From assembly GCA_031263785.1 (NCBI GenBank), contig JAISFC010000026.1, positions 2,922 to 66,921 on the forward strand: a stretch of 64,000 bases of DNA. The letters run 5' to 3'. The translations under genes and the position numbers were made by a program. The notes under the pieces are model-generated. The model made no database searches, was not told where the DNA came from, and was given only the letters and a program-made list of their open reading frames with translations. The stretch comes from Clostridiales bacterium. Lineage in GTDB: Bacteria; Bacillota; Clostridia; Monoglobales; WRBX01. Of the stretch, positions 4,201 through 20,836 are shown in pieces. How positions within the stretch are numbered: the first letter of the stretch is position 1; each line of letters opens with the position of its first letter.

Positions 4201-5854
4201 GGATATCGACATACACTTGCCGCCACGCCGTATTCCCGGTGTACCGATTCCCCGCGCCGTAAATCACCAAATAAACCCTGTGCTCCGCGTACTTCGGCAG
4301 CAGCTCCAAGGTGTAATTTTTGCTCAAAATAGGTCCGCTCACGGAATCCAGCCGAAACTCCGACGCGTAATTCGTGCCGTAATAAAGCCCCGTCGAGTTA
4401 TAATACAGGTTCGACACCCTTATCGTGTTCCCTATCTGCGGCACGCCAATTATCGAAACGTTAATCTCCGATATGTCATATTTAGCGGGGATAACGGGCG
4501 TTTCCGCGGGTAGCTGAATGTCAAACTTAAGCTGCGTTCCCTGATATTGCACGTTGGAAACCACAATTCCCGTATTAACTCCCGCCGAATCATAAATCGT
4601 ATTCACGGTCTCGTTCCCATCCGCGCTGCCCAACGTGTCGCCCGGGTTCAACGCCGCGTTGCGCAAAATCCCGCCGGCGCTGTTCACGCTAGCCTCTCCC
4701 GGGCGAAAAACGTAGATTTCATCGTCGTTATGCAGCTCCAGATTGCTCCCCTTGCCGCTGTACCCGCGATTCACACGATACACTAAAAGCCCCGTCTCAG
4801 GCGCATTATCCGTCCTGCTACGCACCACAAGGTTGTCCGACGACTTCCTGTACTCAAAATAATATTCATCCGCGTCCGTCGCACTGAACTTAACCCGATA
4901 CAAAATCGTACCGTCCACGCTGTCTACGGGGTCCAAAGTATACGTCCCGCTCTCGGTGATTTGAACGGACGTAATCCAATCCAGCTTTTCCCGCTCATAT
5001 CCCGTGGGGAAGTTGGGGTCTTTCCCGTTGTGATTGTTCATAATGCTCCACTGCCCCACCCCTGCGGCGTCCAGGTCGGGCAGGTTCAAAGTGTGCATAA
5101 ACTCGTGCATAATCGTCGTGCGGAGGACGTCCACATTCATGGAACCGTCGCCGAAAAGCGGTATGTAATTGTAGTCAATCCGCTTGCAGCCGTTGTAATT
5201 GAAGGTCACGCCGTTCTGCCCGTCGGTAATCGACCACCGATGCCCCCAAAGCGACATATTGCCCACTTCCATGTTGCCGCCGTAGAAAAACACCACGTTA
5301 TCCACCGACCCGCCGCGGTCACGGTCAATATCAATATCGCTCAAATCCACCGTGTTCAGCGCGTCAATCTGCATCCGTTTAAACCGCTCGTTGCGCTCCG
5401 CCTCGCTCGTGTACCCGATGGGATTCGTCTGCTCATCATACGCTCGGTGATAATTACGCGGGTGCGAGTCCTGATACGATATCGGAATCGCGCTCCCGTT
5501 GGGATACAGAAAATAGTTGTCCATGCGGAATTTTCCGCGAGAAATTGCGTCATAATATTCATTGGAGCTCGTGTTATCCGCGCCATCGTAATACGCCGCG
5601 AAGTCCACCCCACGCACCGTCGGATGGTCAGCCATCCCGCTCACGAATTCCTCTTCGTCAGAAAAGCGCACAAACATCGACAAATTCGTCATGACACCCT
5701 CATCCGGCGGCGGAGTCCCTATCGGCTCGCTTGCCTGCACACGCGCCTTCGTCAGCCCGTTAAGCGCAATTAGCGGGATATCCTCTATGCCGACGCCAGC
5801 CGACGACGACATAACTAACCAAAAAGACAGCAACCCGGAAAGCATTTTCTTCAC
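1235..5854 (-). CDS. large secreted surface protein: N-terminal M6 (immune inhibitor A-like) zinc metalloprotease domain, central Gly-rich repeat region, degenerate dockerin-like C-terminus
   Basis: ORF 1235-5929. The likely start is GTG at 5854, with AAGGAG 9 nt upstream, giving a signal peptide KKMLSGLLSFWLVMSSSAG. HEFMH is encoded at 5093-5107, followed by LNLPDLD and preceded by LWGHRW, as in M6 peptidases. ITI(N/T)GG...GGxG repeats are encoded ~2880-3330. Confidence 0.75.
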   Translation of the reverse strand: MKKMLSGLLSFWLVMSSSAGVGIEDIPLIALNGLTKARVQASEPIGTPPPDEGVMTNLSMFVRFSDEEEFVSGMADHPTVRGVDFAAYYDGADNTSSNEYYDAISRGKFRMDNYFLYPNGSAIPISYQDSHPRNYHRAYDEQTNPIGYTSEAERNERFKRMQIDALNTVDLSDIDIDRDRGGSVDNVVFFYGGNMEVGNMSLWGHRWSITDGQNGVTFNYNGCKRIDYNYIPLFGDGSMNVDVLRTTIMHEFMHTLNLPDLDAAGVGQWSIMNNHNGKDPNFPTGYEREKLDWITSVQITESGTYTLDPVDSVDGTILYRVKFSATDADEYYFEYRKSSDNLVVRSRTDNAPETGLLVYRVNRGYSGKGSNLELHNDDEIYVFRPGEASVNSAGGILRNAALNPGDTLGSADGNETVNTIYDSAGVNTGIVVSNVQYQGTQLKFDIQLPAETPVIPAKYDISEINVSIIGVPQIGNTIRVSNLYYNSTGLYYGTNYASEFRLDSVSGPILSKNYTLELLPKYAEHRVYLVIYGAGNRYTGNTAWRQVYVDIPNSPFVISQADTVFGVALDAPIVEAGYGNGAITYEYQHNSAGEWVAEQPTAVGIHKIRGIVAATESYARCMSAEVAFTISKANSTLEIAQSGTTYGTTLPDAVVTSNTSGAAVTYEYTGYGLDLWAAEAPNTVGHYEVRGNTEATENYNAATSAAVEFYINALVRPLEVTGENADNADYVNRNGNTVEILRDGTYTISLQDGVNYVSDDSVKVAQGVTANITLNGVKIDVSGTGNACAFDMTGATVNLTLVGENSLKSGRYKAGLQASGGSTLTIDGMGSLEAVGSNDGFGNGAGIGGGNGTSGGEITINGGTIIATGGSGGSGIGGGNGGNEGNGGGGEITINGGAIATTGGYGAAGIGCGLNGNGGTITITGGKVTATGGYYSAGIGDGSKDYDEGYGYGDGDYLGEITITGGTITATSGSYGAAIGGGYIYLATGTVTIDGGSVKVNNFSGPQPKNSELKNVYLNTLTLDDPSAVNARVTSLTTAAVAGSASAIMAGEYGTNGVYADESGIIYAWLPDSGSDDEEVIVKAGGKTYKNTYIRAADNNNASTLAKIAGADDVKVILTPDATSKNAGYDGHIDVSFDDATGYDAYALAIPMIFDNDTIEITSLETVDFDAKGLEGLLVNGTFLKSAMDYDSSSEVLSVINSEGKFLLSWTVEENVPLTPHTLTEDVYFRIHYRVKENVPTSASFAIGEYNDTNGITGDQIFGIDGLGVLCSNQDDFGAYLLVDGEYGILTQEYVSITVEDMPAVEISGDVNSISLQGRAMLTGKQRTPISAIGYTPDLDKMDAGIRVEMYEVDGVGVIVKQVGSVAYTQEMNMTAAIGDAASTLYNYTLKIPQTVANDLVSSDPNQSSPKYMLRFSRFGDNGGSVVGTVREESYLWADIYLDGTSVNIGAINESMPLTVGGTAYLYAGAFYLPTADKFALTTSDLNTIKGQVGNTDIAGVTTIFNINEYLGVDAADYTTVLRYVGKEKLQPIPLVVSN

Positions 5855-5978
5855 AATGAACAGCTCCTTTGTATTTTCATTTTTATATGAATTGCTTATA
5901 TATTCAGGTTTTTTATTGATAACGCTCATTTCGGCTCCGCGTTTGCCGTGAGGCGCACCGTGCGGCTCAAAAAATTTG

Positions 5979-6007
5979 TTGACAAACCGTCCAATTTTTG
6001 ATATACT
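5979..6007 (+). promoter_or_regulatory. sigma-A type promoter for tRNA-Met
   Basis: TTGACA (5979-5984), 17-nt spacer, TATACT (6002-6007). The tRNA starts 26 nt downstream. Confidence 0.7.
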
Positions 6008-6032
6008 AGATTAGCGATAATTCCTCTTGAAT

Positions 6033-6109
6033 GGCGGCGTAGCTCAGCCGGTTAGAGCATACGGTTCATACCCGTAAGGTCGGGCGTTCGATTCGCCCCG
6101 CCGCTACCA
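6033..6109 (+). tRNA. tRNA-Met (anticodon CAU), elongator type, CCA encoded
   Basis: The cloverleaf was read by hand. Acceptor GGCGGCG/CGCCGCT, anticodon stem TACGG/CCGTA with loop TTCATAC, T-arm GGGCG-TTCGATT-CGCCC. It has no three G-C pairs in the anticodon stem, so it is not an initiator. It is very similar to the Bacillus elongator tRNA-Met. tRNA-Ile2 (lysidine) is not formally excluded. Confidence 0.9.
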
Positions 6110-6110: not shown

Positions 6111-6272
6111 GTCGGAACAAAGTTCGCTTACTCCGTTTTCGAGCAAAACCCGCTCGAAAACATCCGCGCGCTTCCTTGTTCCTCCTTCTCGCAAAAAGGC
6201 ACGCTGCTGCGTCGCCTAAGCCCTTGCAAGCGCGGGCTTTTTACGGCGACTTGCGCTACCACCTTTTTGCGG
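6111..6272. ncRNA. copy A of an unnamed ~165-nt structured element (transcribed strand unresolved)
   Basis: Aligns end to end with 48873-49036 and 57242-57413 (reverse complement). Five helices are maintained by compensatory changes (see findings). It starts 2 nt after the tRNA-Met CCA. Confidence 0.6.
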
Positions 6273-6490
6273 CTAAACCACCTTCAAAATAGATATATGT
6301 ATATGGAAGATTTGTGAAATCTTCTTCTTTTTTTCCTTAAAACCACCTTCAAAATAAATATTTATATTTAAGAGTTTTATGAAAACTCATTCTTTTCGCT
6401 TTAAAACCACCTTCAAAATAGATAAATATATGTGAAAGTTTTGCGAAAACTTCTTCTTTTTTTCTTAAAACCACTTTCAAGTCACATAAA
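6273..6490. repeat. 3.5 tandem 64-65-bp modules (AAAACCACCTTCAAAATA box, AT-rich segment, 8-9-bp hairpin, T-run)
   Basis: The CCA of the conserved box is at 6278, 6343, 6407 and 6471. Each unit has a hairpin such as GAAGATTT-GTG-AAATCTTC followed by TTCTTTTTTT. Confidence 0.8.
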
Positions 6491-6560
6491 CGTATTTAGT
6501 TAAATTGCTTACGCATTTATTTTATTTCATTCAAAGATTTTCGCAAGAAAATCTTCCACA

Positions 6561-7779: not shown

Positions 7780-9162
7780 TCAATCCATTTTTACGCGCGT
7801 GCCGCCGGGGGTGTCCTCGATTGTGACGCCCATTTGCGTGAGTTTATCGCGAATTTGGTCGGCGAGCGCAAAATTACGCGCCGCCCGCGCCGCCTCACGC
7901 TCGGACACCAGCCGCGTTATTTCCCCGTCCCCGTCCGCTCCGTTTGCCGCTTCATCGGGGAGAATTCGCAATATTCCCGCAAGCTCTCGCATGAGTAAAA
8001 GCGTCTGCACGATTGTCTCCGCAGACGCGCCCTCCGCAAGCGTGTTGATTTCGCGCGTTAAATCGAACAAAACCGCTATCGCCGCAGCTGTATTGAAGTC
8101 GTCGTCCAGCGCGGCTAGGAACTTTTGCTTGTACGCCGCCGTATCCAGCGTTTGCGTGCCGTTTGTGCCGTTTTCCCGCAGGAATTCAAGATTACTCACG
8201 CAACTTTTCAGCCGCTCCAGCCCCGCCTCCGCCTGTTTGATTAGGTCAAACGAAAAATTAATAGGGCTGCGGTAGTGCGCGCTCAGCATGAAAAACCGCA
8301 CCGCGTCCGCACTTACCTGCTTCAAAATATCCCGCACTGTGAAAAAATTCCCCAAAGACTTGCTCATTTTGCGATTATCCACATTAATATACCCATTATG
8401 CAGCCAAAAATTTGCGAATTGGCGCCCGTTCGCCGCCTCACTCTGCGCGACTTCGTTCTCGTGATGCGGAAATATCAAGTCCTGCCCGCCGCTGTGTATG
8501 TCGATATTCGCGCCCAAAAACTTGTTCGCCATCGTGGAACACTCGATGTGCCACCCCGGACGCCCCTCGCCCCACGGACTGTCCCACGCAATTTCGTCCG
8601 CCTCTTTCCGCCGCTTCCAGAGCGCAAAATCCGCAGGCGCGCGCTTCTCTTCGCCCACCTCTATCCTCGCGCCCGCCTCCAGCTCGTCCAGCGGCTGATG
8701 CGAAAGCTTGCCGTATTCCGCGAATTTTTCCGTAGCGAAGTACACATTCCCCGCCATCTCGTACGCGTACTCCTTGTCGACAAGCCGCTGAATAAACTCG
8801 ATAATTTCGGGGATTGTGTCGGTCGCCTTGGGCGCATACGTGGGCTTGCGAATTTTCAGCGCCTCTGCGTCCTTTTGGTACTCCCCGATGTACTTCTCCC
8901 CCAATTCCCGCACCGTAATGCCCTCTTCACGCGCGCGGTTTATCATCTTGTCGTCGACATCGGTAAAATTCTGCACATATATGACCTTGTTCCCCAAATA
9001 TTCAAAATAGCCGCGCAGTGCGTCAAAAATAATGAACGGTCGCGCGTTGCCTATGTGAAAAAAATTATAGACGGTCGGTCCGCAAGAATAAAAGCGCACC
9101 TCGCCCTCTTTAATCGGGATAAATTCCTCTTTTTTCCGCGTTAGCGAATTATACAATTTCAT
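7780..9162 (-). CDS. cysS: cysteine--tRNA ligase
   Basis: 460 aa. HIGH motif (FHIGNARP), KMSKS motif (KMSKSLGNF), and the WHIECS zinc site typical of CysRS. Confidence 0.95.
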   Translation of the reverse strand: MKLYNSLTRKKEEFIPIKEGEVRFYSCGPTVYNFFHIGNARPFIIFDALRGYFEYLGNKVIYVQNFTDVDDKMINRAREEGITVRELGEKYIGEYQKDAEALKIRKPTYAPKATDTIPEIIEFIQRLVDKEYAYEMAGNVYFATEKFAEYGKLSHQPLDELEAGARIEVGEEKRAPADFALWKRRKEADEIAWDSPWGEGRPGWHIECSTMANKFLGANIDIHSGGQDLIFPHHENEVAQSEAANGRQFANFWLHNGYINVDNRKMSKSLGNFFTVRDILKQVSADAVRFFMLSAHYRSPINFSFDLIKQAEAGLERLKSCVSNLEFLRENGTNGTQTLDTAAYKQKFLAALDDDFNTAAAIAVLFDLTREINTLAEGASAETIVQTLLLMRELAGILRILPDEAANGADGDGEITRLVSEREAARAARNFALADQIRDKLTQMGVTIEDTPGGTRVKMD

Positions 9163-9196
9163 ATTATTCCCCCCGTTATCGGTTTGATTGCGACTC

Positions 9197-9510
9197 GTGT
9201 CGATTGTTCGATTTTTTTGCGATTGCTTTCTCTATTGTCGATTCTTCGATTTTTTTGCGGTTGACGTTGTCGATTGTTCAATTTTTTTGCGATTGTCGTT
9301 CCCGTTGTCGATTCTTCGATTTTTTTGCGATTACTTTGTCGATTCTTGAATTTTCTTGCGGTTGGCTTTGTCGATTGTTCGATTTTCCTGCGGTTGACTT
9401 TGTCGATTCTTCGATTTTCTTGCGGTTGGCTTTGTCGATTGCTCAATTTTTTTGCGGTTGGAACTCCTATTGTCGATTCTTCGATTTTTTTGCGATTCGC
9501 GTTTATCCCA
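9197..9510. repeat. 9-unit tandem array (units 31-38 bp; core TGTCGATTSTTCGATTTTTTTGCGRTTG) filling the cysS upstream region
   Basis: The TCGATT anchor is at 9200, 9238, 9270, 9308, 9339, 9371, 9403, 9435 and 9473. Confidence 0.9.
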
Positions 9511-9519
9511 TAATAGCGG

Positions 9520-11370
9520 TCATTCCTCGACGTCAAACTGGCTGTTATACAGCTTAGCGTACGCCCCACTCTTGGCGAGCAGCTCCGCGTGCTTGCCCTG
9601 CTCCACTATGTCGCCCTCTTCCATGACCAAAATCAGGTCGGCGTCGCGTATCGTAGACAGCCTGTGCGCGATTATAAAGCTCGTGCGCCCCTCCATAAGG
9701 TTGCTCATCGCCTTCTGAATCAGCACCTCCGTGCGCGTGTCGACACTGCTGGTTGCCTCGTCCAGAATCAGGATTTGCGGGTCCGACAAAATGGCGCGCG
9801 CAATGGTTATAAGCTGCCTTTGCCCCTGCGACACGTTGTTCGCCTCCTCGTTGAGCACCATGGAATAATCGCCGGGGAGCGCGTGTACAAAATGGTCCAC
9901 CTGCGCCGCTTTTGCCGCCGCTCGCACCTCGTCGTCACTCGAGCTAAGCCGCCCGTAGCGTATATTTTCGGCGATGGTCCCGTTGTACAGCCACGTGTCC
10001 TGCAGCACCATGCCCAGCAGCGAATGCAGGTCGTCTCGGCGAAAATCGCGAATATCCACCCCGCCAATCATTATCGCCCCGCCCGTGACGTCATAAAACC
10101 GCATGAGCAGCTTGATAACCGTCGTCTTCCCCGCTCCCGTATGCCCGACTATGGCTATCCTCTGCCCCGCCTGAATCTTGGCGTTAAAGTCCTTGATTAC
10201 CACCTTTTCCGGCGTGTACCCAAACCTCACGTGCCGGAATTCCACGCTCCCGTACTCCCGCTCCGACGCGTCTTTTAGGCTTATCGCCGCCACTTTGTCG
10301 GGGGTCTCGTCCTGCTCCTCGATAAACTCGAACACCCGCTCGCTCGCCGCCGCCAGCTGCTGGAGTATGTTGGAGATGTTCGCCACCTGCATCAGCGGCT
10401 GGTTAAATTGCTTCACATACTGCAAAAACGCCTGCACGCCGCCCACCGTCATGAGCGACGACGCCGCGAACCACCCGCCCAACACGCACACCGCCACATA
10501 TCCTATATTATTAATCACCGCCGTCAGCGGCCATACTATGCCCGAAAAGAATCCCGCCTTCCACGCGGAGTGATACAGTCGGTCGTTTATCTTGTTGAAT
10601 TGCTCCACGCTCGCCGCCTCGCCGTTGAACGCCTTGACCACGGCATGCGCGCTGTACATCTCCTCGACATGCCCGTTCACATGCCCCAAATACTCCTGCT
10701 GGCTGAAAAAATATTTCTGCGACGCCCGAAAAATCAGCCCCGTGCACCCAAGCACAACGGGCACCACAAGCAACGCCGCCAGCGTGAGCTGCCAGCTGAT
10801 AGTCAGCATCATGACCGCGATTCCGACAATCGTCGTAAGCGAGGTGATTATCTGCGTTATGCTCTGCGAAAGCGACTGCCCGATAGTGTCAATATCATTT
10901 GTGATTAGCGAAAGTACCTCTCCATGCGTGACCTTGTCGAAATACGAAAGTGGCAAACTGTGGATTTTATCGTCCGCTTCCTTGCGTATTCGGTACGTGA
11001 CCTTAGTCGCCACGCCCGTCATCATGTAGCTCTGCACAAACGCGCACGCGGCGGACACCACATACATCCCCAAAATCATCAGCAGAATTTCGGCTATTTT
11101 CCCGAAGTTTATGCCCCCGCCCTCGCCCGACATCATAGCCATAAAGCCGCTTAACAGCTCGTCGGTCGCTCTGCCCAATATCAGCGGACCCGCCACCATA
11201 AAAATCGTGGAGGCAATCGCCAGCAGGAACGCGAAAAACGCCGCCCATCTATACCGTCCGATGTATTGTATCAGCTTTAATACAGCCCTTTTGAAGTTGC
11301 GCGCCTTCTGCGTCGGCAGCCCCATCTCTTGCGACGGCACGCGCTTTCTCGCTCTCGTTGATTGCGGCAT
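9520..11370 (-). CDS. ABC transporter permease/ATP-binding protein (type I exporter half-transporter)
   Basis: 616 aa. N-terminal six-TM domain, Walker A GHTGAGKTT, signature VSQGQRQ, Walker B ILILDEATS. Confidence 0.9.
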   Translation of the reverse strand: MPQSTRARKRVPSQEMGLPTQKARNFKRAVLKLIQYIGRYRWAAFFAFLLAIASTIFMVAGPLILGRATDELLSGFMAMMSGEGGGINFGKIAEILLMILGMYVVSAACAFVQSYMMTGVATKVTYRIRKEADDKIHSLPLSYFDKVTHGEVLSLITNDIDTIGQSLSQSITQIITSLTTIVGIAVMMLTISWQLTLAALLVVPVVLGCTGLIFRASQKYFFSQQEYLGHVNGHVEEMYSAHAVVKAFNGEAASVEQFNKINDRLYHSAWKAGFFSGIVWPLTAVINNIGYVAVCVLGGWFAASSLMTVGGVQAFLQYVKQFNQPLMQVANISNILQQLAAASERVFEFIEEQDETPDKVAAISLKDASEREYGSVEFRHVRFGYTPEKVVIKDFNAKIQAGQRIAIVGHTGAGKTTVIKLLMRFYDVTGGAIMIGGVDIRDFRRDDLHSLLGMVLQDTWLYNGTIAENIRYGRLSSSDDEVRAAAKAAQVDHFVHALPGDYSMVLNEEANNVSQGQRQLITIARAILSDPQILILDEATSSVDTRTEVLIQKAMSNLMEGRTSFIIAHRLSTIRDADLILVMEEGDIVEQGKHAELLAKSGAYAKLYNSQFDVEE

Positions 11371-13629
11371 TTATCCCACCTCCCCTGACGTTATTTGTGA
11401 TTCCGCTATTTCCCTGTATTCAAGGCAGTTTTTCATCAGCTGCCCGTGCGTTCCTCTTCCGACTATTTTCCCCTCGTCCAGCACGATTATCTGGTCGGCG
11501 TTCATGATGGTGCTGACCCGCTGCGCCACGATTATTAGCGTCGCCTCCGCCATGTTGGCTTTCAACGCGCGTCGTAAATCGCTGTCCGTCTGGAAGTCCA
11601 GCGCGGAGAAACAGTCGTCAAACACGTAAATCGGGGCTTTTTTCACCAGCGCGCGCGCAATGGATAACCTCTGCTTTTGCCCTCCCGACACGTTTGCGCC
11701 GCCCTGCGCTATCTCGTCGTCAAATTGCTTCGGCTTCGCCTCGATAAACGGCAACGCTTGCGCTATCTCCGCCGCCGCCCTTATATCCTCAAACGAGGCG
11801 TTTTCGTCAGCATATTTGAGGTTGGACGCTATCGTCCCGGACATCAACACGCCCTTTTGCGGGACGTAACCGATTACGCTCCTCAGCTCCGCCTGCGTAC
11901 ATTTGCGCACGTCAATCCCGCACACCTCCACCGCGCCGCCCGTCACCTCGTAATACCGCAGAATCAGGTTCAACAGCGTACTTTTCCCCGCTCCCGTCGG
12001 TCCTATTATCGCGGTCGTCTGCCCCGGCAGGGCGGTGAACGTAATCCCGCTCAAAGCGTCTGTGTCCGCGTTGTGGTACCTGAACGACACGTCCTTAAAG
12101 CTCACGACACCCCGCATTTCCGGGCGTAATTCCCATGCCTCAAGGTCCCGAATCGAGCTTTCCGTGGTCAGCACCTCGTCAATTCGCTCCGCCGACACCG
12201 CCGCGCGCGGCAGAAACATGAACAGCATCGAGATAAACATAAAGCTCATTATAATTTGCAGTGCGTATTGCATAAACGCCATCATATCGCCGATTTGTAT
12301 CTCCGACGCCGCGATGTGTTTCGCCCCCACCCACACGATTAAAAGCGTGATTAAGTTGGTGAGCATCATCATTAGCGGCATCATCGCGGACATTGTGCGC
12401 CCGATAAATAAATACGTGTCGGTTAGCTCCGTGTTTGCGCGGTCAAAACGCCGTTTTTCAAAAAAGCGTGTACCGAACGCGCGGATTACCATCGTCCCCG
12501 AGAGATGCTCGCGCGCGACCAGATTCACCTTGTCCGTGAGCTTTTGCAGCGATTTAAATTTCGGGAGCGTGACGGAAAATGTTATGACCATCAGCAGCGC
12601 GATTAATATGCACGCCAGCGCGATTACCCAGCTCATAGACGGCGATTTGTTGATCGCCATCACTATCCCGCCCACCGCCATGATGGGCGCGAAAAACACC
12701 ATGCGTATGCCAATCATGAGCGTGTTTTGCATCTGCGTGATGTCGTTGGTGGAGCGGGTTATAAGCGTAGATACCGAGAATTTATCCATTTCGTCGTTCG
12801 AGAAGCTCTGCACTTTAACGAAGATTTTGCGGCGGAGCTTGCGCGCCATCCCCGCGGACAAACGCGTCACAAGGAACCCCACGAGTATCGCCGCCAATCC
12901 GCCTAATATCGAGATTATAAGCATCGTCATCCCCGTGCGCAAGATGTAATTCGACTGCAATTGCGCCAGCGAGCCGCCCAATTCCGTGTGGAAAACGCCC
13001 GCCATAAACGCGCCCGTTTGCAAGCGCAGCGGCTCGTCGAGCGCCAACGCCGCGTCACGCGCTTCGGAAATCAACTCAGGCGGCGCCAACTCCCACGTGC
13101 TCTGCATGGCGTATAATTGCGCTATTTCTATGTCCTGCACGCCGAATTCCCCCGCCTCGCCCGACGGCAACGCTTGCCCCGTCTGCGCGCGGTATTCCTT
13201 CATTATATTGATGAGCGTCCACGTCGCGTTGGAAAAAATAACGTCCAGCTCCGCGCGGGTTTGCTCATCCACCCGACTGTCCAGAAAATACACCCGAGCC
13301 TCCTCGCCCTGCGGCGCGCTGCCGTTGCGAATAATCGGCGTACGCGCGCTGTCTATGCCCGCGTCGAACCCCAAAACATAGCGGTCGCTCACCTTTATGC
13401 GCTCCAGCGGCGACATAAACACCTTCATCAGCCGCAGCCCTTCCCTGCTTATCACCGGCGGCGACGCGTGCTCCACCCCGCTCTGCTGAATCCCTATATT
13501 CACAATCCCCGACATGTACCCCGGCAAGCACAAATCGCACATCGCCTGCCCGAAAAGCACGATAAACACTATGATTAGCGTATATTTATACGGTCGCAGA
13601 TACTTCAGTAATTTACCCAACCATGACAT
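11371..13629 (-). CDS. ABC transporter permease/ATP-binding protein (partner half-transporter, long loop after TM1)
   Basis: 752 aa. Walker A GPTGAGKST, signature VSGGQKQR, Walker B IYVFDDCFS. It abuts the downstream ABC gene, consistent with a heterodimer arrangement. Confidence 0.9.
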   Translation of the reverse strand: MSWLGKLLKYLRPYKYTLIIVFIVLFGQAMCDLCLPGYMSGIVNIGIQQSGVEHASPPVISREGLRLMKVFMSPLERIKVSDRYVLGFDAGIDSARTPIIRNGSAPQGEEARVYFLDSRVDEQTRAELDVIFSNATWTLINIMKEYRAQTGQALPSGEAGEFGVQDIEIAQLYAMQSTWELAPPELISEARDAALALDEPLRLQTGAFMAGVFHTELGGSLAQLQSNYILRTGMTMLIISILGGLAAILVGFLVTRLSAGMARKLRRKIFVKVQSFSNDEMDKFSVSTLITRSTNDITQMQNTLMIGIRMVFFAPIMAVGGIVMAINKSPSMSWVIALACILIALLMVITFSVTLPKFKSLQKLTDKVNLVAREHLSGTMVIRAFGTRFFEKRRFDRANTELTDTYLFIGRTMSAMMPLMMMLTNLITLLIVWVGAKHIAASEIQIGDMMAFMQYALQIIMSFMFISMLFMFLPRAAVSAERIDEVLTTESSIRDLEAWELRPEMRGVVSFKDVSFRYHNADTDALSGITFTALPGQTTAIIGPTGAGKSTLLNLILRYYEVTGGAVEVCGIDVRKCTQAELRSVIGYVPQKGVLMSGTIASNLKYADENASFEDIRAAAEIAQALPFIEAKPKQFDDEIAQGGANVSGGQKQRLSIARALVKKAPIYVFDDCFSALDFQTDSDLRRALKANMAEATLIIVAQRVSTIMNADQIIVLDEGKIVGRGTHGQLMKNCLEYREIAESQITSGEVG

Positions 13630-13882
13630 CTCCTTTAGAGGTTATTTTATAACAACGTGAACAAAAAATCAAGAAATATTTTTAGATTGCCGCAAAGTTT
13701 TTTTAGCGCATAACCGCGAAAACGAAAATTTGAGCTTAAAATTTCAAACACAATCGCACAGACAAAAGCAAGCGCGGCAAGGCATATGTACTTAAAATCG
13801 CCGCGGAATTTCAACGCGGGAAGCTCTCTTTCAGGCGCAAATGCGTTATTTTCACGCTCCCCGTCAGCATTACGAATTATTT

Positions 13883-14329
13883 CTACGCGGGCTTCTCGCC
13901 CAGCAACGCCGAACGCCACCTTTTATTATCTTTAAAAAGATTTAACTTAAATATACTTCCGTCTTTGAACTTCACCTCGAGCATTCTACGCACTCCACGC
14001 TCCACGCCCACGTCGATAATTTCCTCGCGCGGGAATTCAAATTCCGCCGTTTTGTCGGCTGTTTCCGCCTTCTTAGAGGCGCGCTTTTTAGCAGCGGACG
14101 CAAAAAGCCTAAGCAGCAAGCCGCCGACCGCCCCGAACATCACCAACATCAATATGCCCGCCTGCGCGCTGCGCGATACTTGCCTTATAATCAGCCGCTT
14201 GTTGGTCAAAAAAATTTCTCCCGTCACGGGCGCTATCGCTTTACCGAGGCAAAAATCGCCCATCTCCCGCAGCTCAATAATTTCGCCTTCTTGCAGAGTC
14301 GGCTCCGTCATCCGCGCACTCCCTTTCAC
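13883..14329 (-). CDS. hypothetical membrane protein with PH/GRAM-like motif
   Basis: 148 aa. GEIFLTNKRLII is a bPH/GRAM-like strand motif, followed by a hydrophobic segment AGILMLVMFGAVGGLLLRLF. Confidence 0.5.
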   Translation of the reverse strand: MKGSARMTEPTLQEGEIIELREMGDFCLGKAIAPVTGEIFLTNKRLIIRQVSRSAQAGILMLVMFGAVGGLLLRLFASAAKKRASKKAETADKTAEFEFPREEIIDVGVERGVRRMLEVKFKDGSIFKLNLFKDNKRWRSALLGEKPA

Positions 14330-14407
14330 CCGCCTATTATATCACTTTAATTTTACAAAGTCAATCGCCCTCGGAGCAAAATTTATCCGCAAACGCGCCC
14401 GCGTCCG

Positions 14408-15085
14408 TCAGCCCGTTATTCGGCTTATCCCCGCGATATCGCTCACCGGCATGGAATAGCATATCCCGCGCCCCTCCCGCGTCAGCCCCGCCGCCTTCAC
14501 TATCGCCTGCATTATTTCGCCCTTTTCCTCCTGCCTCACCAAAATATACAGCACGTCCTTTTCCGCCTGAATCGGAACCCCCAAGAACTCCGCCTCGTCG
14601 TTTTCCTTTGTGCCGCGCGCCTTGATAATCGTCCCGCCCTGCGCCCCCGCGTCTTTCGCCGCTTGCATCGCGGTTTCCGCATACCCCCTGTTAAATACCG
14701 CCACAATCAACTCATACTTATTTTCCATCTTCTTCTCCGCTCCCTTCGCCTGATTCTCCGCCCTGCCTCTTATCATCTCCGCCGCGTTCCCGCCGACAAC
14801 GCCCGACAGCGGAACCGCAAACGCTATCCCGTGCCCCTCCTTGCTTATCTTCAAATCGGTGCGTAAAACGCTGATAATTTCCTGCACAATCCCGTCCTCC
14901 GCAAGGAACGTGATAAGCGCCTTCTCCGTTTCGCCCAGCCCTAATTTCGCCAGCCGCCTTGAGCTCGCCGTCCCCTTGCAGACCGTGATAGTCTTGTAAA
15001 TCGCCCCGCACGACGCCCCGAGCCTCGAAACTTTGTCCGCAAAATCCCTGTCTATTATAACATTTAATTGTTTTGGCGCGTTCAT
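14408..15085 (-). CDS. P-II-like (nitrogen regulator fold) family protein, two tandem domains
   Basis: ATG at 15083-15085 with GGAGG 8 nt upstream. The C-terminal half (YELIVAVFNRGYAETAMQAAKDAGAQGGTIIKARG) resembles the P-II fold family. It overlaps the upstream gene's stop. Confidence 0.65.
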   Translation of the reverse strand: MNAPKQLNVIIDRDFADKVSRLGASCGAIYKTITVCKGTASSRRLAKLGLGETEKALITFLAEDGIVQEIISVLRTDLKISKEGHGIAFAVPLSGVVGGNAAEMIRGRAENQAKGAEKKMENKYELIVAVFNRGYAETAMQAAKDAGAQGGTIIKARGTKENDEAEFLGVPIQAEKDVLYILVRQEEKGEIMQAIVKAAGLTREGRGICYSMPVSDIAGISRITG

Positions 15086-16581
15086 AGCGTCTCCCTCCAA
15101 TCGAACTCAATAATCTCGACATCTTCGGCTATCGCAACGGTTTCTACCGGTTTCATCCTGCTCGCCAGCCCCAAAACCTGAATGGCGACGAGCGGAGTCA
15201 GCGCAACCAACGCGACCAATCCAAAGGCATCGCGCAATATATTCCCGCCGATTCCGTTCGATGCCCCCAACGAGAACGCCAAAAGAAACGTGGACGTCAT
15301 GGGTCCCGATGCGACGCCGCCGCTGTCGAAGGCTATCGCCGTGTAAATTGGCGGGACGAAAAACGAGATAATCAGCGCTAAAATGTACCCCGGCAGTATT
15401 ATCCACCACAAATTAAGCCCCGTGTACACCCGCAGCATCGCCAACGCGACCGAAATCCCAATACCTATGCTAAGCGCGGTGATTATCGCCCTTTCGCTTA
15501 TCGCGCCGTTGGTTACCTCCTCGACCTCCTGCTTCAAAACGTGTATCGCGGGTTCAGCCATGACGACGACGAACCCCATCAAAAACCCGAGGGGGATTAT
15601 GCTCCAGGCGTACGGCGACGTTGCGATGCTCGCGCCCATGATTTGCCCGATTGGGATGAACCCCACATTTGCGCCCATCAAGAACAACACTAAGCCAAAA
15701 TATGTGAAAATCAAGCCTATACCTATCGAAATCAGCTTTCGCGGCGGCAACTTGACGGCGAAAATTTGGAACAATATAAATAGCAGCACGATGGGGCTCA
15801 GCGCGACCGCCACTTCTTTTAAGTATTCGGGGAAGGCGCGCAGGTAGACGGAGACGGCGTCGCTAAAGCCCGCAATTTCCGTTATTCCCGTGCTTTCGTA
15901 GGAATTTTCGCCCTTAAACAGCAAGCTCAATATCAACACCGAAAGAATCGGTCCGATGGAGCACAACGCAACCGCCCCGAAGCTCTCTTCGCCTTTGTCC
16001 TTCGTGTCGCGAACCGCCGCAACGCCCGCTCCCAGCGCAAGAATAAACGGTACGCTGACGGGTCCGGTCGTGACGCCCCCGCTGTCAAACGCTATCCCCA
16101 AAAAGTCCTGCGGAATCACGCTCGCGATTGCGAATATAACCCCGTAAAACCCTAATAATATCCACTGTAGCTTGATTTTGAAAAGCGTCCGCAGGAAGGA
16201 CACCACCAAAAATGCCCCGACTCCTATCGCGATGGTCAGCGTCAAAGTCCGCGTCGGGACGGACGGCACAAGCCTAGACAGCACCGCCAAATCCGGCTCC
16301 GCGACCGTGATAAACACGCCGATTATGAACCCGCCCAGCAGAATCAGCCATATCTTTTTCGACCGCGACAAATACGCGCCTATGCTCTCGCCCATCGGCA
16401 TTGTCGCGCTGTCGGCTCCGAAGGTGAAGAGAAACATGCCGATAATCAGCGAAAATACCCCTATTATAAACACCGCCATTATGCCGTCGCTCACCGGAAC
16501 GGCAATGAGCGAAAGTAGTATTATAATGATTGACAGCGGCAAAACCGCCGATAATGCCTCCTGCAGCTTTTGTTTCAACAA
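15082..16581 (-). CDS. polytopic membrane protein, DUF1538-like (usually paired with a P-II-like gene)
   Basis: 499 aa and highly hydrophobic, with an internal duplication (AFDSGGVTTGP / AFDSGGVASGP). The family name is recalled from memory, not searched. Confidence 0.65.
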   Translation of the reverse strand: MLKQKLQEALSAVLPLSIIIILLSLIAVPVSDGIMAVFIIGVFSLIIGMFLFTFGADSATMPMGESIGAYLSRSKKIWLILLGGFIIGVFITVAEPDLAVLSRLVPSVPTRTLTLTIAIGVGAFLVVSFLRTLFKIKLQWILLGFYGVIFAIASVIPQDFLGIAFDSGGVTTGPVSVPFILALGAGVAAVRDTKDKGEESFGAVALCSIGPILSVLILSLLFKGENSYESTGITEIAGFSDAVSVYLRAFPEYLKEVAVALSPIVLLFILFQIFAVKLPPRKLISIGIGLIFTYFGLVLFLMGANVGFIPIGQIMGASIATSPYAWSIIPLGFLMGFVVVMAEPAIHVLKQEVEEVTNGAISERAIITALSIGIGISVALAMLRVYTGLNLWWIILPGYILALIISFFVPPIYTAIAFDSGGVASGPMTSTFLLAFSLGASNGIGGNILRDAFGLVALVALTPLVAIQVLGLASRMKPVETVAIAEDVEIIEFDWRETL

Positions 16582-16620
16582 ATCACCCTTTCGATGTACG
16601 TTTTGTGCGTTTTATGCATT

Positions 16621-17226
16621 TTACAGGTTCTCCTCCTGCATGTCTATCTCTTCGCCCGCCCAAATAATCAGCCTGTTCGGCGCTCGCCACCTCGTCACCT
16701 TCTCGCGGGAGAACAGATTCAGCGGTTGCGTGTGTATCGGGACGTTGTGCCTCGCGCCGATAACCGCCGCTATAGCCGCGCTTTCAGCGAGCGGAATTGT
16801 AAATACGTCGTCCGTGTTGAAAATAGCGTAATCAAACCGGCGGTCCGCAAACGTCTTCATCTGTTCGGTGACGCCCGTGTCGCCCGTGCAGTAAGTTTTC
16901 AAGCCGTCAAACTCCAGAATATATCCCACGCATTCATCTTTTTCGTGATTCTTATTGTACGCCTCCGTCGCCTCAATTCTCAAGCCGTCAAACTCAAAAA
17001 CCTTGTACTCCCCGTCAACAAGCGCGTTTTCATTCGTGATTACCACGCATTCGGGCTTCTGCTTTATGAGCTTGATTTTATTATGGTCAAAGTGTTGGTG
17101 CGTAATAAGCACAAAATCAGCGGGCAAATCATAGCCTCTGCCGGAAAATGGGTCGAGGTAAATAACCCGCCCGTCGTCAAGCGTAAATCGGAGCGAGCCA
17201 TGCCCCTGAAACAATAATTTACTCAT
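16621..17226 (-). CDS. MBL-fold metallo-hydrolase
   Basis: HQHFDH (HxHxDH) motif. ATG at 17224-17226 overlaps the upstream gene's end. Confidence 0.8.
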   Translation of the reverse strand: MSKLLFQGHGSLRFTLDDGRVIYLDPFSGRGYDLPADFVLITHQHFDHNKIKLIKQKPECVVITNENALVDGEYKVFEFDGLRIEATEAYNKNHEKDECVGYILEFDGLKTYCTGDTGVTEQMKTFADRRFDYAIFNTDDVFTIPLAESAAIAAVIGARHNVPIHTQPLNLFSREKVTRWRAPNRLIIWAGEEIDMQEENL

Positions 17227-18010
17227 TTTCCGCCTCCTTTTGGTTGTTCGCCGCAATTATCCCGTCAAGGCTGACGGCGGCGTTGCGAAAACGCGAGCTA
17301 CTCTTCTCATTTTTAAGGTGAATCGCATTTTGCGGGCACAAATGCACGCAACCCAAGCACCCCTCGCACCTGTCCGCGAAGCGCACCTCATCATCAACCA
17401 CGATATTTCCGCTCGGGCACACTTTGGCGCAAACGCCGCATTTAATGCACTTTTCGTCGACGATATATCCCTGCGCCTGCCTCCCGTTAATTACGAACCT
17501 CTCTCCCGCGCGCATGAGGGATGTCGCGATTTTCCAGCCGATAGCGGCTTTTTCAACGAAATGCCGCCGCGCCGCAATGTCCGCAAGGATTTTATCCAGA
17601 TTTTCCTCAATATTTTTCTCTTTCGTGCGCTCCGTTTCTTTGCCCACCTCAAACATCGGCAGATAATTGTCGAACATAAGTAAACTTTTCGCGTAATCAA
17701 ACCCGCCGATATCTCCCGATTTTCCCCGCCTTTGAGCGAGTTTTGCAACGTTCTCCATCGCCGCCCCCGGCAAATTCCCGTACGTGCCGATTGCAAAAGT
17801 GTAGTCCGCCGCGAACCGCGCGTTTGTTATGAATCGCCGCACCATTTTAGGCGTACCGAAGCCATAAATGGGGAAAATCACGCCGATAACATCATCTTGA
17901 TATTCCTGCGTTCCGCCCCCGACCACTTGCGGTATCGAAACCAGCTCCCCGCCCATTTTTTTCGCCACAGCAAGGCAGTTCCCCGTCGACGTAAAATAAA
18001 ATATCGTCAT
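17219..18010 (-). CDS. flavodoxin-like domain fused to a 2x[4Fe-4S] ferredoxin domain (EFR1-type)
   Basis: N-terminal MTIFYFTSTGNC flavodoxin-like start. Two CxxCxxCxxxCP motifs (CIKCGVCAKVCP, CEGCLGCVHLCP). Confidence 0.75.
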   Translation of the reverse strand: MTIFYFTSTGNCLAVAKKMGGELVSIPQVVGGGTQEYQDDVIGVIFPIYGFGTPKMVRRFITNARFAADYTFAIGTYGNLPGAAMENVAKLAQRRGKSGDIGGFDYAKSLLMFDNYLPMFEVGKETERTKEKNIEENLDKILADIAARRHFVEKAAIGWKIATSLMRAGERFVINGRQAQGYIVDEKCIKCGVCAKVCPSGNIVVDDEVRFADRCEGCLGCVHLCPQNAIHLKNEKSSSRFRNAAVSLDGIIAANNQKEAENE

Positions 18011-18088
18011 TTTGTCCCCCCATTTCACTTTATTTCGTCTTATTCCATATTTCCGCTTCTTAAATGTCCCATTAAATCGGCTTAATCC

Positions 18089-18694
18089 CTAAATCTTCCC
18101 GCGGACCTCAATCGCCTCGCCTATTATCTCAAGCCCGCCGCCCCGCGTGTATCTAACCCCGTCGTTCTCGTCCCCGCCAAACGGATAAAGCCTAATCTCG
18201 CCGCTTTCCTCCCGCTTCACCTTTTTCAGCGTCACCTCCGCGCCTCCTGTCATAACCGCCGCCGTCCCGCCCGACGCAACCGCCGATTGCCGCCTTATAA
18301 TCACTATATCGCCGTCCCGCACCCGCGGCTCCAGCCCGTCCCCGCTCACCCGCAGGGCAAAATACCGCCCGGTCCCCGCCATCTCCGCGCTTATTTCCTC
18401 ATACCCCAATATATCCCGCATCGCCTTCGCCGCTCCCGTCGTTATCATGGAAAAAATCGGTATCAAAACCCCTCGCGGATGCTTATTAATTTTGTCGTCC
18501 GTCATGCCCTCCAGATATTCTATTGACACATTGAAATAGTCCGCTATCTTAACGAGCGCTCCGTGTGAGGGTTTTGCCAGCCCTTTTTTCCAGCCGTTTA
18601 TGGAGCTATGGTTTATTCCTATGGCTTTTGTCAGTTGCGAAGCGTTAATATTGTTAATTTTCATAAGCTCCAAAATCCGCTCAATCACAAACAA
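18089..18694 (-). CDS. XRE-family HTH repressor fused to an S24 (LexA/CI-like) self-cleaving peptidase domain
   Basis: 201 aa. HTH SQLTKAIGINHSSINGWKKG. C-terminal S24-like region (ALRVSGDGLEPRVRDGDIVIIR...). It lacks the LexA winged-helix N-terminus. Confidence 0.75.
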   Translation of the reverse strand: MFVIERILELMKINNINASQLTKAIGINHSSINGWKKGLAKPSHGALVKIADYFNVSIEYLEGMTDDKINKHPRGVLIPIFSMITTGAAKAMRDILGYEEISAEMAGTGRYFALRVSGDGLEPRVRDGDIVIIRRQSAVASGGTAAVMTGGAEVTLKKVKREESGEIRLYPFGGDENDGVRYTRGGGLEIIGEAIEVRGKI

Positions 18695-18737
18695 AACGCC
18701 TTTCCTGAAAATTTTTTTCTAAATTTTAAAAAAAATG

Positions 18738-18766
18738 TTGACAAATCTAAAATTTAGATATATAAT
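18738..18766 (+). promoter_or_regulatory. consensus promoter with embedded palindromic operator, divergent from the repressor gene
   Basis: TTGACA (18738-18743), 17 nt, TATAAT (18761-18766). The palindrome TCTAAAATTTAGA (18746-18758) lies in the spacer, and a related TCTAAATTTTA is at 18718-18728. Confidence 0.65.
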
Positions 18767-18892
18767 ATATTCGTAAAGCGTGTTCATTTTCCACAGAGAT
18801 GCGGAAATGATGGGCGTTGTTTAAGTCCATTATAACACGCAATGTATTCATTTGTCAACAAAATCGAGTAAAAATTTTAGGAGGTCATTTTA

Positions 18893-19108
18893 ATGGGAAC
18901 TTTTGTTAAGGAGCAGGAAGAAATAACGGCGGAACTGCTGAAAATAGCCGACTTATTAAAGGTCGCGTCCCTTGTGGGCGAGTGCGGCAGTGATTCCACG
19001 CACGAATTGACGTCTGTAGCCGAAATTGTGTGCGACAAATTAGAAGAAATAATCGATAGACAAAAAAGGCTTGTGGAAAGCCCCGCAATGCTTGAGTTAG
19101 TGATTTAG
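18893..19108 (+). CDS. hypothetical 71-aa acidic protein
   Basis: ATG preceded by TAGGAGG. Divergent from the XRE/S24 repressor. Confidence 0.5.
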   Translation: MGTFVKEQEEITAELLKIADLLKVASLVGECGSDSTHELTSVAEIVCDKLEEIIDRQKRLVESPAMLELVI

Positions 19109-19186
19109 TACATCATAAGTATTTTGTTTTTGTAGATATTTTGTTTTTTCAGCGCGGGGGCAGGTCTTTACGTGCCTCCACCTCCG

Positions 19187-20836
19187 CTACATGCCAAAAT
19201 TCACTACCAAAAAGGGTCCCGTATCCAAAATGTAGCCGCGGTTGGGGAACATAGGCATGCTAATTGCCGCTTCTTGCGCTTCTTTTAGGTAGTCGCCGCC
19301 CTCCATGCACTCAAAACCCAGCCCTCGCAAAAATTCAAACACAAAATAATTAGGGTCGTAGGCGTAATCAAAATCCAGCCCTTTGGTCACCACGCCCCAT
19401 GAAGAAAATGTCCCCTCCAGCAATTTGCAGGACTGCATGACATATTTCTTTTTTTTGGTCGATTCCGGGATATAATCCGTCTTTTCGCATAGCCAACGCC
19501 CGATATTGCTGTCCGCGAGCACCCCGACATACCTCATCACACTGTCCGTGTAGCGGTACAGCCCGACGAAAACCACCGGCTTGGCTTCATAGTTGTCGCG
19601 GAGGTCGTTGCCTATTTTGGTAAAGTTCCGCACATCCTCGTTGTACCGCAGATTATTCACAAAAAACCACTTATTCATGTCGTTTATCTGATAAAATAGC
19701 AGGAGTAAAATCAATGCCGCCGCGCCTATTCGCGCCTTGCGCCACCTCATCGTCGACACGCTCTGCGCCAAAATCATCAGCACAAACGCCGCGAAAAAGC
19801 CGAACACTTGGCACGCGCGGTACAACATGCTTTGCCCCAAAAACACGGGCATGGCAAAATTCGTCAATATAATCACCGCGAATAACACCGCAATCAGCTT
19901 ACTTTTGCGCCTAATCGCCAATACCAGCCCGCACACGAACGCCGCGATTAATGCCCCGTCGAAAATGGCGATGGGCAGGTAATACGCGCCGGCTATGAAA
20001 TAATTCAGCCAAACCGTCGAGAAAAACGTGTGCAACGCCTCGAGGAACGGGCGGTCGTGCCAATTGATGTACGACGTCGTGTATTCGGAGTAGCCCGGGA
20101 GAATCGGCTGCATGTAGTTTTTTAGCAGCGCGCCCACGATATATCGGAAGGCAATCGCCAGCACGAGCGCCTCCAGCGTCAGCCACAGTCGGTTCCACAC
20201 TATCCGCTTGGAATGCGCGGTGCCGTACAGGCGGCGGACCAGAAAGCAACACATTAACCCGCTTATAAACACCGCCACGAAGGATTCGTAAATCGCAAGC
20301 ACAAGCGTCAGCGCGGCAATCGCCCAATACATGTTGGCGCGGCTCTCCTGCCACTCGTCGATTAGGATTATGCTCACCGTGACGAGGAAAAAGCACAGCG
20401 GGATGCTGAAACTTTGATTGGTGTAAATCAGCACCTCGTTCAATAGCGGCGCGGCGATGAAAAAACACGCGAAGATGACATAGGTGAATCGGGAAAGCGA
20501 ATCCCCGCTGATTTTTTTGAATTGGCAGCACCATAAAATTGCCGTCGCCACCAGCGTCATTATCCCCAAAAACGGCATAATCATCGGGCGGAAGGCGTAT
20601 ATGTTCAGCACCTTATCCAGAATCACCGTGCCGAACCTGCCTGCCGACACAAGCAGATTGTTGGACCCATAATATAGGTCGAAGGACAAATCCTCTACGT
20701 TCGGCGAAAAATTGAATACAAAAAAGGAATATGCCAACACTGCCGTGACTGAAACCGCCAACATAAACCATTTGTCTTTTAAAAATCGCAGAAATAAGGT
20801 TTTGTAACGCTGCAGCATATTCCTTCCCTTCTCCAA
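19187..20836 (-). CDS. polytopic membrane protein, possibly a GT-C-type glycosyltransferase (GtrII/ArnT-like)
   Basis: 549 aa with more than 10 predicted TM segments and a soluble C-terminal domain. The family assignment is by architecture only. Confidence 0.4.
   Translation of the reverse strand: MEKGRNMLQRYKTLFLRFLKDKWFMLAVSVTAVLAYSFFVFNFSPNVEDLSFDLYYGSNNLLVSAGRFGTVILDKVLNIYAFRPMIMPFLGIMTLVATAILWCCQFKKISGDSLSRFTYVIFACFFIAAPLLNEVLIYTNQSFSIPLCFFLVTVSIILIDEWQESRANMYWAIAALTLVLAIYESFVAVFISGLMCCFLVRRLYGTAHSKRIVWNRLWLTLEALVLAIAFRYIVGALLKNYMQPILPGYSEYTTSYINWHDRPFLEALHTFFSTVWLNYFIAGAYYLPIAIFDGALIAAFVCGLVLAIRRKSKLIAVLFAVIILTNFAMPVFLGQSMLYRACQVFGFFAAFVLMILAQSVSTMRWRKARIGAAALILLLLFYQINDMNKWFFVNNLRYNEDVRNFTKIGNDLRDNYEAKPVVFVGLYRYTDSVMRYVGVLADSNIGRWLCEKTDYIPESTKKKKYVMQSCKLLEGTFSSWGVVTKGLDFDYAYDPNYFVFEFLRGLGFECMEGGDYLKEAQEAAISMPMFPNRGYILDTGPFLVVNFGM

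Follow-up and report, generated by a model that had tools for sequence, protein, structure and literature searches.

The described systems closest to the repeat array analyzed here are the mycobacterial MIRUs, the iterons and centromere-like arrays (F sopC and R1 parC), the streptococcal BOX elements, the T-box leaders of cysS, and clusters of Spo0A boxes. MIRUs contain an ORF that is coupled to the following gene at -4 (PMC12548453). The array resembles MIRUs in that tandem units of tens of bp lie between co-oriented genes of a probable operon, in that the stop of an ORF through the array overlaps the downstream start codon (ATGA), and in its unit-sized growth steps. On the other hand, MIRUs form a dispersed multi-locus family with units of 46-101 bp and polymorphic copy numbers, whereas the array is found at one known locus, has units of 31-38 bp, and shows no upstream coupling.

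At the F sopC locus, a 43-bp repeat that contains a short inverted repeat is present twelve times. Protein-binding direct-repeat arrays have about nine to twelve copies in a row, and the array has nine. Like iterons, sopC and R1 parC, it has a conserved core, free spacers, and a short inverted element in each unit. Unlike them, it is chromosomal and lies between housekeeping genes, with no rep or par gene nearby and no plasmid or phage similarity, and its period is not uniform in helical phase.

Streptococcal BOX elements contain intergenic tandem boxB modules of about 30-45 bp in variable copy number. The array is likewise an intergenic tandem module between genes, but BOX elements have boxA and boxC flanks, a stable RNA structure, and more than 100 loci per genome, and the array has none of these. 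The T-box leaders of cysS and cysE-cysS in Bacillus and other Firmicutes resemble the array in their place, which is immediately before cysS on the coding strand. They differ from it in their model match, Stem I, specifier loop, and terminator/antiterminator, all absent from the array, the RNA of which is less structured than random.

Base-specific contacts with the 0A box core, TGTCGAA, are made at G2, C4 and G5, and genuine targets often deviate slightly from the consensus (PMC3485338). The sequence TGTCGAT in the array keeps these three bases and has a T on the 5' flank. Position 7 differs in all nine units, and nine evenly repeated boxes are not a known 0A arrangement. Tandem 0A boxes are spaced by 10, as in the abrB site, versus 8 for the half-sites in the array.

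Structure of the array

The first-pass annotation of the window (the whole 64-kb stretch of DNA that was analyzed) had reported nine tandem repeats, which fill the 357-bp gap that separates cysS from an ABC exporter gene. Both the array and its extent were confirmed (Table 1). The gap spans positions 9163-9519. The units (u1 to u9) start at 9197, 9235, 9267, 9305, 9336, 9368, 9400, 9432 and 9470, and every TCGATT anchor listed in the annotation coincides with a unit start plus 3.

On the plus strand, each unit was composed of a 29-nt core, TTGTCGATTSTTCGATTTTTTTGCGRTTG, followed by a linker. The unit reads CAAYCGCAAAAAAATCGAASAATCGACAA on the minus strand, which is the cysS strand, and the core given for the array is the 29-nt sequence TGTCGATTNNTNNATTTTNNTGCGRTT. 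The linker was 2-3 nt long in five units and 9 nt long in three, and the linker lengths fell into only two classes, exactly 6 nt apart. The unit lengths were, in order, 38, 32, 38, 31, 32, 32, 32 and 38 bp, and about 41 bp for the last one (to 9510).

Tandem Repeats Finder assigned a period of 32 to positions 9198-9503 (7.8 copies, score 279), plus periods of 38 and 70, with scores of 279-286 for the array. A separate repeat finder placed the copies in register. The 18-mer TGTCGATTSTTCGATTTT, with up to three mismatches allowed, gave nine matches in the window, all of which were inside the array. In shuffled sequences the mean was 0.18 matches, and none of 100 shuffles reached nine. With direct head-to-tail repeats of 10-100 bp, in non-coding DNA and far above chance (9 versus 0.18), the array has the properties of a minisatellite.

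The sequence TGTCGATT was invariant in all nine units. The sub-motif CGRTT occurred 24 times in the array (26 counting CARTT), with spacings of 8, 11, and 13 or 19. This agreed with the internal half-repeat described in the annotation. The mean recurrence of the sub-motif was once every 10.7 bp, or about one helical turn. The inverted element TCGA-N4-TCGA was present in every unit.

The cores of u4 and u9 were identical, and a higher-order period of 70 bp was formed by 38 + 32. The youngest block of the array is u5-u7. The 70-bp period, the identical u4 and u9 cores, and the substitution common to u5-u7 only suggested that the array grew by stepwise duplication.

Intrinsic DNA curvature from phased A-tracts was also considered and rejected. 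In a rough test under a wedge model with Bolshoy parameters, the array ranked 23,518th of 63,686 windows, an unremarkable place near the middle of the distribution.

Table 1. Coordinates of the array and of the features discussed in the text
Feature	Position	Strand	Description
Nine-unit tandem array	9197-9510	+	direct repeats, head-to-tail; units 31-38 bp
Central units u5-u7	9336-9431	+	all 32 bp; common derived C inside T-run
Orphan ORF (136 aa)	9159-9569	-	open throughout array; TGA overlaps cysS ATG (ATGA)
cysS (cysteine-tRNA ligase, 460 aa)	7780-9162	-	directly downstream of array; Pfam tRNA-synt_1e, E = 7e-132
cysS ribosome-binding region	9163-9174	-	GGGGGG at 9174-9169, spacer AATAAT, ATG at 9162
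ABC exporter subunit (fused permease + ATPase, 616 aa)	9520-11370	-	stop codon 9 nt from array start
Second ABC exporter subunit (752 aa)	11371-13629	-	abuts first subunit
TTGACG-N15-TATTAT	9510-9536	-	overlaps ABC stop codon; sole promoter-like site near gap
Sigma-A-like promoter TTGATT-17-TAAAAT (9/12)	13644-13672	-	just upstream of ABC genes
Other array	6263-6534		three to four 64-bp units between tRNA-Met and rodA end
Other array	56397-56693		threefold ~105-bp duplication: 3' end of 926-aa ORF plus downstream sequence

Assembly support and neighboring genes

An assembler artefact was ruled out. In the independent Logan assembly of SRR14710921, the sole other assembly with the locus, the array sequence was identical base for base, with the same copy number. 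No exact repeat inside the array was longer than 28 nt, and the assembly path is therefore unique at k values of 29 and above. The count of nine units is a minimum, as extra identical units may have collapsed in assembly.

The CysS protein scored 577 bits against the NCBIfam cysS model (cut-off, 340). The GGGGGG ribosome-binding site of the gene was intact, 22 nt past the last core, and a rodA-type gene was located 61 bp behind cysS. The two ABC genes make up a probable operon, transcription of which would continue into the array and cysS.

The genes around the array were cysS, rodA, the ABC exporter genes, and those for a P-II-domain protein and DUF1538. There was no rep or par gene among these neighbors, and no regulator gene adjoined the array. 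A CRISPR array was ruled out by 'spacers' of 2-9 nt and by the absence of cas-like genes from the scanned neighbors. A replication origin or terminus was also rejected, the GC skew being monotonic throughout the window.

Promoters, terminators and RNA of the cysS strand

Recognizable sigma-A promoters were present in the window. Thirteen sites matched at 10/12 or better with a 17-nt spacer, against a chance expectation of about three sites per spacer class. They included the tRNA-Met promoter, the promoter of the gene that precedes the ABC operon, and a divergent pair near the L10 leader.

In the cysS gap, the promoter scan found no promoter with a 16-18-nt spacer. The TTGACG-N15-TATTAT site near the gap was rejected as a cysS promoter. 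It was the one spacer-15 site in the window, versus about three expected by chance, and a 15-nt spacer is atypical here. The 9/12 site upstream of the ABC genes is a candidate source of a transcript that crosses the array.

Between 8900 and 9800, the terminator scan of the minus strand was negative. Since the gap contains neither a terminator nor a convincing promoter, cysS and rodA are probably read through from the ABC operon, as part of one transcript.

The minus-strand RNA of the gap folded worse than 98 of 100 dinucleotide shuffles (z = +1.79). On the cysS strand the array was composed of 50% A, 22% C, 18% G and 11% U, with an AT skew of about -0.65. This is a strong strand asymmetry.

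The ORF that runs through the array (Table 1) is probably a by-product of this T-poor composition, which leaves the cores free of stop codons. At the upstream end of the gap there was only a 6-codon ORF, starting at the ABC stop codon. A protein-coding reading was rejected, as the ORF had no Pfam match and matched only itself among 1.84 billion representative proteins.

The T-box question and the cysS loci of relatives

The annotation had placed the array where a T-box would normally be, and had seen no T-box sequence, Stem I, or terminator/antiterminator on the cysS strand. The second observation held. Rfam gave zero matches in 9050-9650 even at E <= 10, and at the gathering threshold the whole window contained two tRNAs and the L10 leader only. 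There was thus no match to RF00230 at the cysS gap, and no terminator/antiterminator hairpins were seen on the minus strand.

The expectation itself was not apt for this lineage. Five related cysS loci were scanned, and no Rfam family was above threshold in any of them. A T-box is therefore not expected at cysS here.

The nearest other CysS proteins among 5.8 billion proteins were only 74% and 72% identical. The ABC exporter homologues, from Oscillospiraceae, Ruminococcaceae and Saccharofermentanales-type Clostridia, were 61-64% identical. At these distances, there were no close relatives in which the history of the array could be traced.

Seven related cysS loci were read. The CysS identity in the relatives compared was 64-74%, and cysS mostly abutted or overlapped the upstream gene. 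In four of the seven loci this was a CDP-alcohol phosphatidyltransferase gene. In the others, cysS followed prmC by 14 nt, overlapped an uncharacterised short ORF (L134/L135), or was preceded by a 180-bp gap made of ACTGAT/ATCAGT motifs (one locus each).

The most informative relative was L130 (CysS 72% identical), which has the same ABC-to-cysS order. The same ABC exporter gene lies upstream of cysS there, and the last 91 residues of its product are 81% identical. The gap between the two genes is 125 bp and lacks the repeats. It carries a sigma-A promoter close to the consensus, TTGACT-17-TATAAT (11/12 match), and a leader with a long hairpin of -30.2 kcal/mol (z = -4.2).

The L130 gap and the array gap could not be aligned. 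Derivation of the array from the L130 leader was rejected, as the local alignment score of 19 was close to that of shuffles (16.2 +/- 2.4), 78 of 500 of which reached 19 or more. The absence of repeats from the L130 gap and the lack of alignment between the two gaps suggested that the array is specific to its lineage, a novelty placed where L130 keeps a promoter and a structured leader.

Searches for the repeat elsewhere

A degenerate pattern that matches all nine units had no match in 185,579 species-representative genomes and none in viral contigs. In metagenomes it gave two single matches only, both unrelated. With blastn, the array matched nothing in plasmids or phages, and a plasmid or phage origin was rejected accordingly.

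A weight matrix of the core, scanned over the 64-kb window, scored the nine units at 48-53 bits and the next best site below 0 bits. The absence of any further copy of the core ruled out a dispersed regulatory motif in the window.

When the search was relaxed to any three TGTCGATT boxes separated by 28-42 bp, at least 120 loci matched. All were tandem repeats without relation to the array, most of them having coding periods of 30, 33, 36 or 42, and were rejected as homologous arrays. Beyond the nine units there was no copy in the 64-kb window, and none that was related in the public collections searched.

Plus-strand hairpins and other arrays in the window

According to the annotation, each unit forms a 5-bp hairpin on the plus strand followed by a T-run, and the array is a row of mini terminator-like structures. 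The hairpins and T-runs do exist, but the hairpins are weak. The single-unit hairpins (GTCGA-N4-TCGAT) had energies of -4.2 to -5.9 kcal/mol, which were equalled by 10-30 of 200 shuffles.

A terminator scan of the plus strand gave three sites, versus 1.8 +/- 1.4 expected. These sites corresponded to inter-unit stems of nine pairs with T-runs, and the stems depended on G-T pairs. The plus-strand RNA of the whole gap folded better than shuffles (z = -2.6). With stems no better than those of shuffles, on the wrong strand for both flanking genes, the units did not have the properties of intrinsic terminators.

Two other arrays in the window had been cited as signs of a genome-wide habit of amplifying terminator modules. 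In the array at 6263-6534, each unit contained an AT-rich hairpin with a T-run (-2 to -7 kcal/mol), and the stems varied between copies with the pairing kept. To this extent the suggestion was supported. On the other hand, there was no terminator call in the array at 56397-56693, and no sequence was common to the three arrays. A habit of amplifying terminators was not supported, but tandem duplications between genes are frequent in the 64-kb stretch. The presence of these two unrelated arrays indicated that the genome tolerates or generates such arrays.

Conservation of the core

The three units with long linkers (u1, u3 and u8) were compared pairwise. Their cores were identical at 79 of 87 positions, and their 9-nt linkers at 8 of 27, which is the chance level. 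The difference was large (Fisher p ~1e-9), although the pairs are not independent. When shifts were allowed in the alignment of the linkers, the matches rose only to 3-5 of 9.

The core was therefore 91% conserved between units whose 9-nt linkers had chance identity. A conserved core with unconstrained spacers is the arrangement of iteron- and centromere-like arrays. The contrast leaves two explanations, selection on the core or homogenisation confined to the cores. Homogenisation of the cores could proceed by short template switches, those crossing a linker turning a 38-bp unit into a 32-bp one.

Plain recent slippage did not fit this difference between core and linker, as duplication would have copied the linkers too.

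The core was also compared by eye to the motifs of ECF-sigma, sigma-D, LexA, CcpA, CodY, Rex, WalR, ComA and the DnaA-box. None fitted.

Discussion

We interpreted the array as an orphan, lineage-specific intergenic minisatellite, transcribed as a permissive, unstructured spacer, rather than as a riboswitch leader or a terminator array. This is the best explanation that we can offer, and we put about even confidence in it. The array may have arisen by replication slippage or unequal exchange within the spacer that separates cysS from the ABC exporter gene, and may have grown in steps of one unit (32 bp) and two units (70 bp). It would have replaced a promoter-bearing leader in the spacer where L130 has its promoter and hairpin leader. 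At present, the minus strand of the array would be transcribed within an ABC-ABC-cysS(-rodA) message. As an A-rich, unstructured spacer free of terminators, it would let RNA polymerase and ribosomes reach the intact ribosome-binding site of cysS. We infer that it has no dedicated regulatory role.

For an essential-type gene such as cysS, it is not self-evident that a neutral insertion could remove the gene's own promoter without harm. This counts against the minisatellite reading, as do the difference between core and linker, the invariance of TGTCGATT, and the two discrete classes of linker length.

Several other explanations were weighed against the minisatellite. It is scarcely credible that each unit is a small plus-strand terminator, either as a shield from antisense transcription or through amplification of a terminator module. 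The hairpin is followed by T4-T7 in each unit, the whole-gap fold was better than shuffles, and the three scan sites had nine-pair stems with T-runs, all of which would fit such a role; yet 5-15% of shuffles equalled the hairpins, the scan count was within expectation and its stems needed G-T pairs, the T-run was broken in three units, no plus-strand gene or good promoter was present upstream, and the other arrays of the window were unrelated. It is very unlikely that the ORF in the array is a real small protein or is coupled in the manner proposed for MIRUs, with the ATGA overlap delivering ribosomes to the cysS start. The frame is open over the entire gap, there are about eight stop codons in the other two frames, and since 32 and 38 both leave a remainder of 2 when divided by 3, the frame survives the 6-nt difference in linkers. 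However, the ORF has no ATG, and no Shine-Dalgarno sequence precedes any in-frame GTG or TTG. In addition to the negative searches given above, the 31-nt unit shifts the register of the repeat, and the core occurs in each of the three reading frames, which indicates conservation of nucleotides and not of a peptide. An RNA platform, in which the A-rich single-stranded repeats tune the translation, stability or polarity of cysS, is less implausible though still distinctly improbable. The candidate binders are Hfq or an S1-type protein, Rho, or CysRS through GCAAA, which resembles the anticodon loop of tRNA-Cys. The low structure and the composition of the sense RNA (50% A, 11% U) and its skew favor this, as does YCGCAA, which is found on the sense strand of every unit and holds the Cys anticodon triplet GCA followed by A. 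Variation in linker length would also matter less for binding to RNA than for phasing on DNA, and the structured leader at the same position in L130 makes leader-level control of cysS plausible in the clade. Against it, there is no match to a known RNA family (Rfam), the C content of 22% versus 18% G is weakly rut-like at best, and the likeness to the anticodon is a motif of 3-5 nt with no supporting structure.

The array may also serve as DNA sites for a sequence-specific protein, up to nine of them or 27 counting the CGRTT sub-motifs, and act as a roadblock, a repressor or a titration sink in the expression of cysS and rodA. We regard this as possible but rather unlikely. The retention of the core beside linkers at chance identity, the invariance of TGTCGATT in every unit, and the recurrence of CGRTT at about a helical turn (spacings of 8, 11 and 13) are what such sites would show. 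The named candidate is Spo0A, the 0A box of which agrees with the invariant TGTCGAT at 6/7 positions, the three contacted bases being kept in every unit; the spore germination protease family Peptidase_A25 is present in relatives, so the lineage probably sporulates. On the other hand, a 6/7 match is weak and surfaced after mental comparison with many transcription-factor motifs, and position 7 and the spacing deviate as described above. No other copy of the core was found in the 64 kb or in the collections searched, which indicates that there is no regulon for a binding protein, and no regulator gene is beside the array. The 32-bp units are phased at three helical turns, which the 38-bp units interrupt, and gene conversion limited to the core can mimic selection. 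It is likewise doubtful, to a similar degree, that the 29-nt core is a selected recognition element whose nine phased copies make a multivalent platform on DNA (for example, for Spo0A~P) or on unstructured mRNA; we would give no more weight to control of cysS and rodA by such a platform in place of the promoter-plus-hairpin leader of the closest syntenic relative. Taken together, a selected array that binds a protein or an RNA factor is a real, if minority, alternative to the minisatellite, and it stays so because of the contrast between core and linker.

The kind of element, a minisatellite, is already known, and this instance is new. If the array is a neutral minisatellite, its use is chiefly practical. 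It shows that cysS in this Clostridia lineage normally has no T-box in front of it. The locus also carries a warning, as one gene caller made the array into a 125-aa 'protein' that is now in public databases. The array is a possible marker for strain typing, and it provides a natural case in which the promoter and leader of an essential gene appear to have been replaced by repeats with the ribosome-binding site kept. If the core is a binding site, the array would be an unusual and highly multivalent control element for an aminoacyl-tRNA synthetase, and a global regulator could thereby be connected to cysS and to cell-wall growth (rodA).

Position of the array relative to conserved gene order

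In the 74% relative (L002/L003), the gene order was rpoA, a 191-aa gene, GtrII, prmC and cysS. Comparison of 9500-19200 of the window with these loci showed that GtrII (19187-20836) and cysS were about 10 kb apart in the window. This non-syntenic block contained a repressor, an Fer4 protein, DUF1538, a P-II-domain protein, a 142-aa unknown and two ABC genes, and the nine-unit tandem array was located at its cysS-side edge.

The promoter next to the repressor gene was directed at a 71-aa ORF (18893-19108). The repressor gene and this opposed promoter (18089-18766) resembled a phage-type switch in layout; no obvious prophage was found around the pair.

The protein called from the array (P0241) was listed in a public protein collection, and it had no homologues but itself. 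Because the repeats are T-poor, this was probably a spurious gene call.

Features of the window and of the cysS upstream regions of two relatives
Feature	Position	Strand	Remark
125-aa 'protein' P0241	window 9162-9536	-	translated from repeat array
HTH_3 + Peptidase_S24 repressor gene (CI/LexA-like)	window 18089-18694	-	
Sigma-A promoter, perfect 12/12	window 18738-18766	+	adjoins repressor gene, opposite direction
Back-to-back consensus promoters, 12/12 and 11/12	window 39293 and 39313	- and +	
L10 leader	window 39334-39526		adjoined by the promoter pair 39293/39313
tRNA-Met	window 6033-6109	+	
64-bp tandem units, three to four copies	window 6263-6534		between tRNA-Met and rodA 3' end
926-aa ORF	window 53663-56443		
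Coding repeats, 12 nt x 21	window 54939-55194		inside 926-aa ORF
Threefold tandem duplication, ~105 bp	window 56397-56693		starts within last codons of 926-aa ORF, extends downstream
cysS leader of syntenic relative	L130 288-412 (JGI 3300038395, Ga0415639_071610)		
180-bp gap before cysS	L133 304-483 (JGI 3300009784, Ga0123357_10204550)		

Other repeats in the window and elsewhere

In each of the 64-bp units near tRNA-Met, AAACCACCTTCAAAATA was present as a conserved block, and a T-run came after an AT-rich hairpin. The stems varied from copy to copy with the pairing kept (GAAGATTT/AAATCTTC, GAGTTTT/AAAACTC and AAGTTTT/AAAACTT). A small hairpin, CCGCAAATGCGG, was present in every copy of the duplication at the end of the 926-aa ORF.

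In the Myxococcota bacterium BF4_93 (JAVFAO01) MAG, a 36-bp tandem repeat, CTTGTCGATTGGGCGCTTGGCCTGTTCCCCCAACTT, was found on more than 20 contigs in 3-6 copies each (L010, L018, L022, L025, L033-L035, L041, L043 and others). The repeat forms a dispersed family and may be coding, with a period of 12 aa. In a Pseudomonadota MAG (JBCDJX010000094; L074 2500-2900), TGTCGA-N(5-17)-TCGACA palindromes were densely clustered immediately 5' of a gene start. At a further locus (L102), three copies of a 19-mer, GGTAATTTTGTCGATTAAG, occurred at each of 4330-4440 and 5935-6040, and these sites, 1.6 kb apart, resembled the paired termini of a mobile element.

cysS leaders of relatives

The relative with the same ABC exporter upstream of cysS (L130) carried in its leader a sigma-A promoter (11/12) and a long hairpin with imperfect pairing (-30.2 kcal/mol, z=-4.2), which matched no Rfam family. 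This may represent a cysS leader element not described before.

The gap before cysS in another relative (L133) was composed of four direct ACTGAT motifs, then three ATCAGT motifs in inverted orientation; the motifs could fold into a long hairpin. Short repeats seem to have been used repeatedly to rebuild cysS leaders in this clade.
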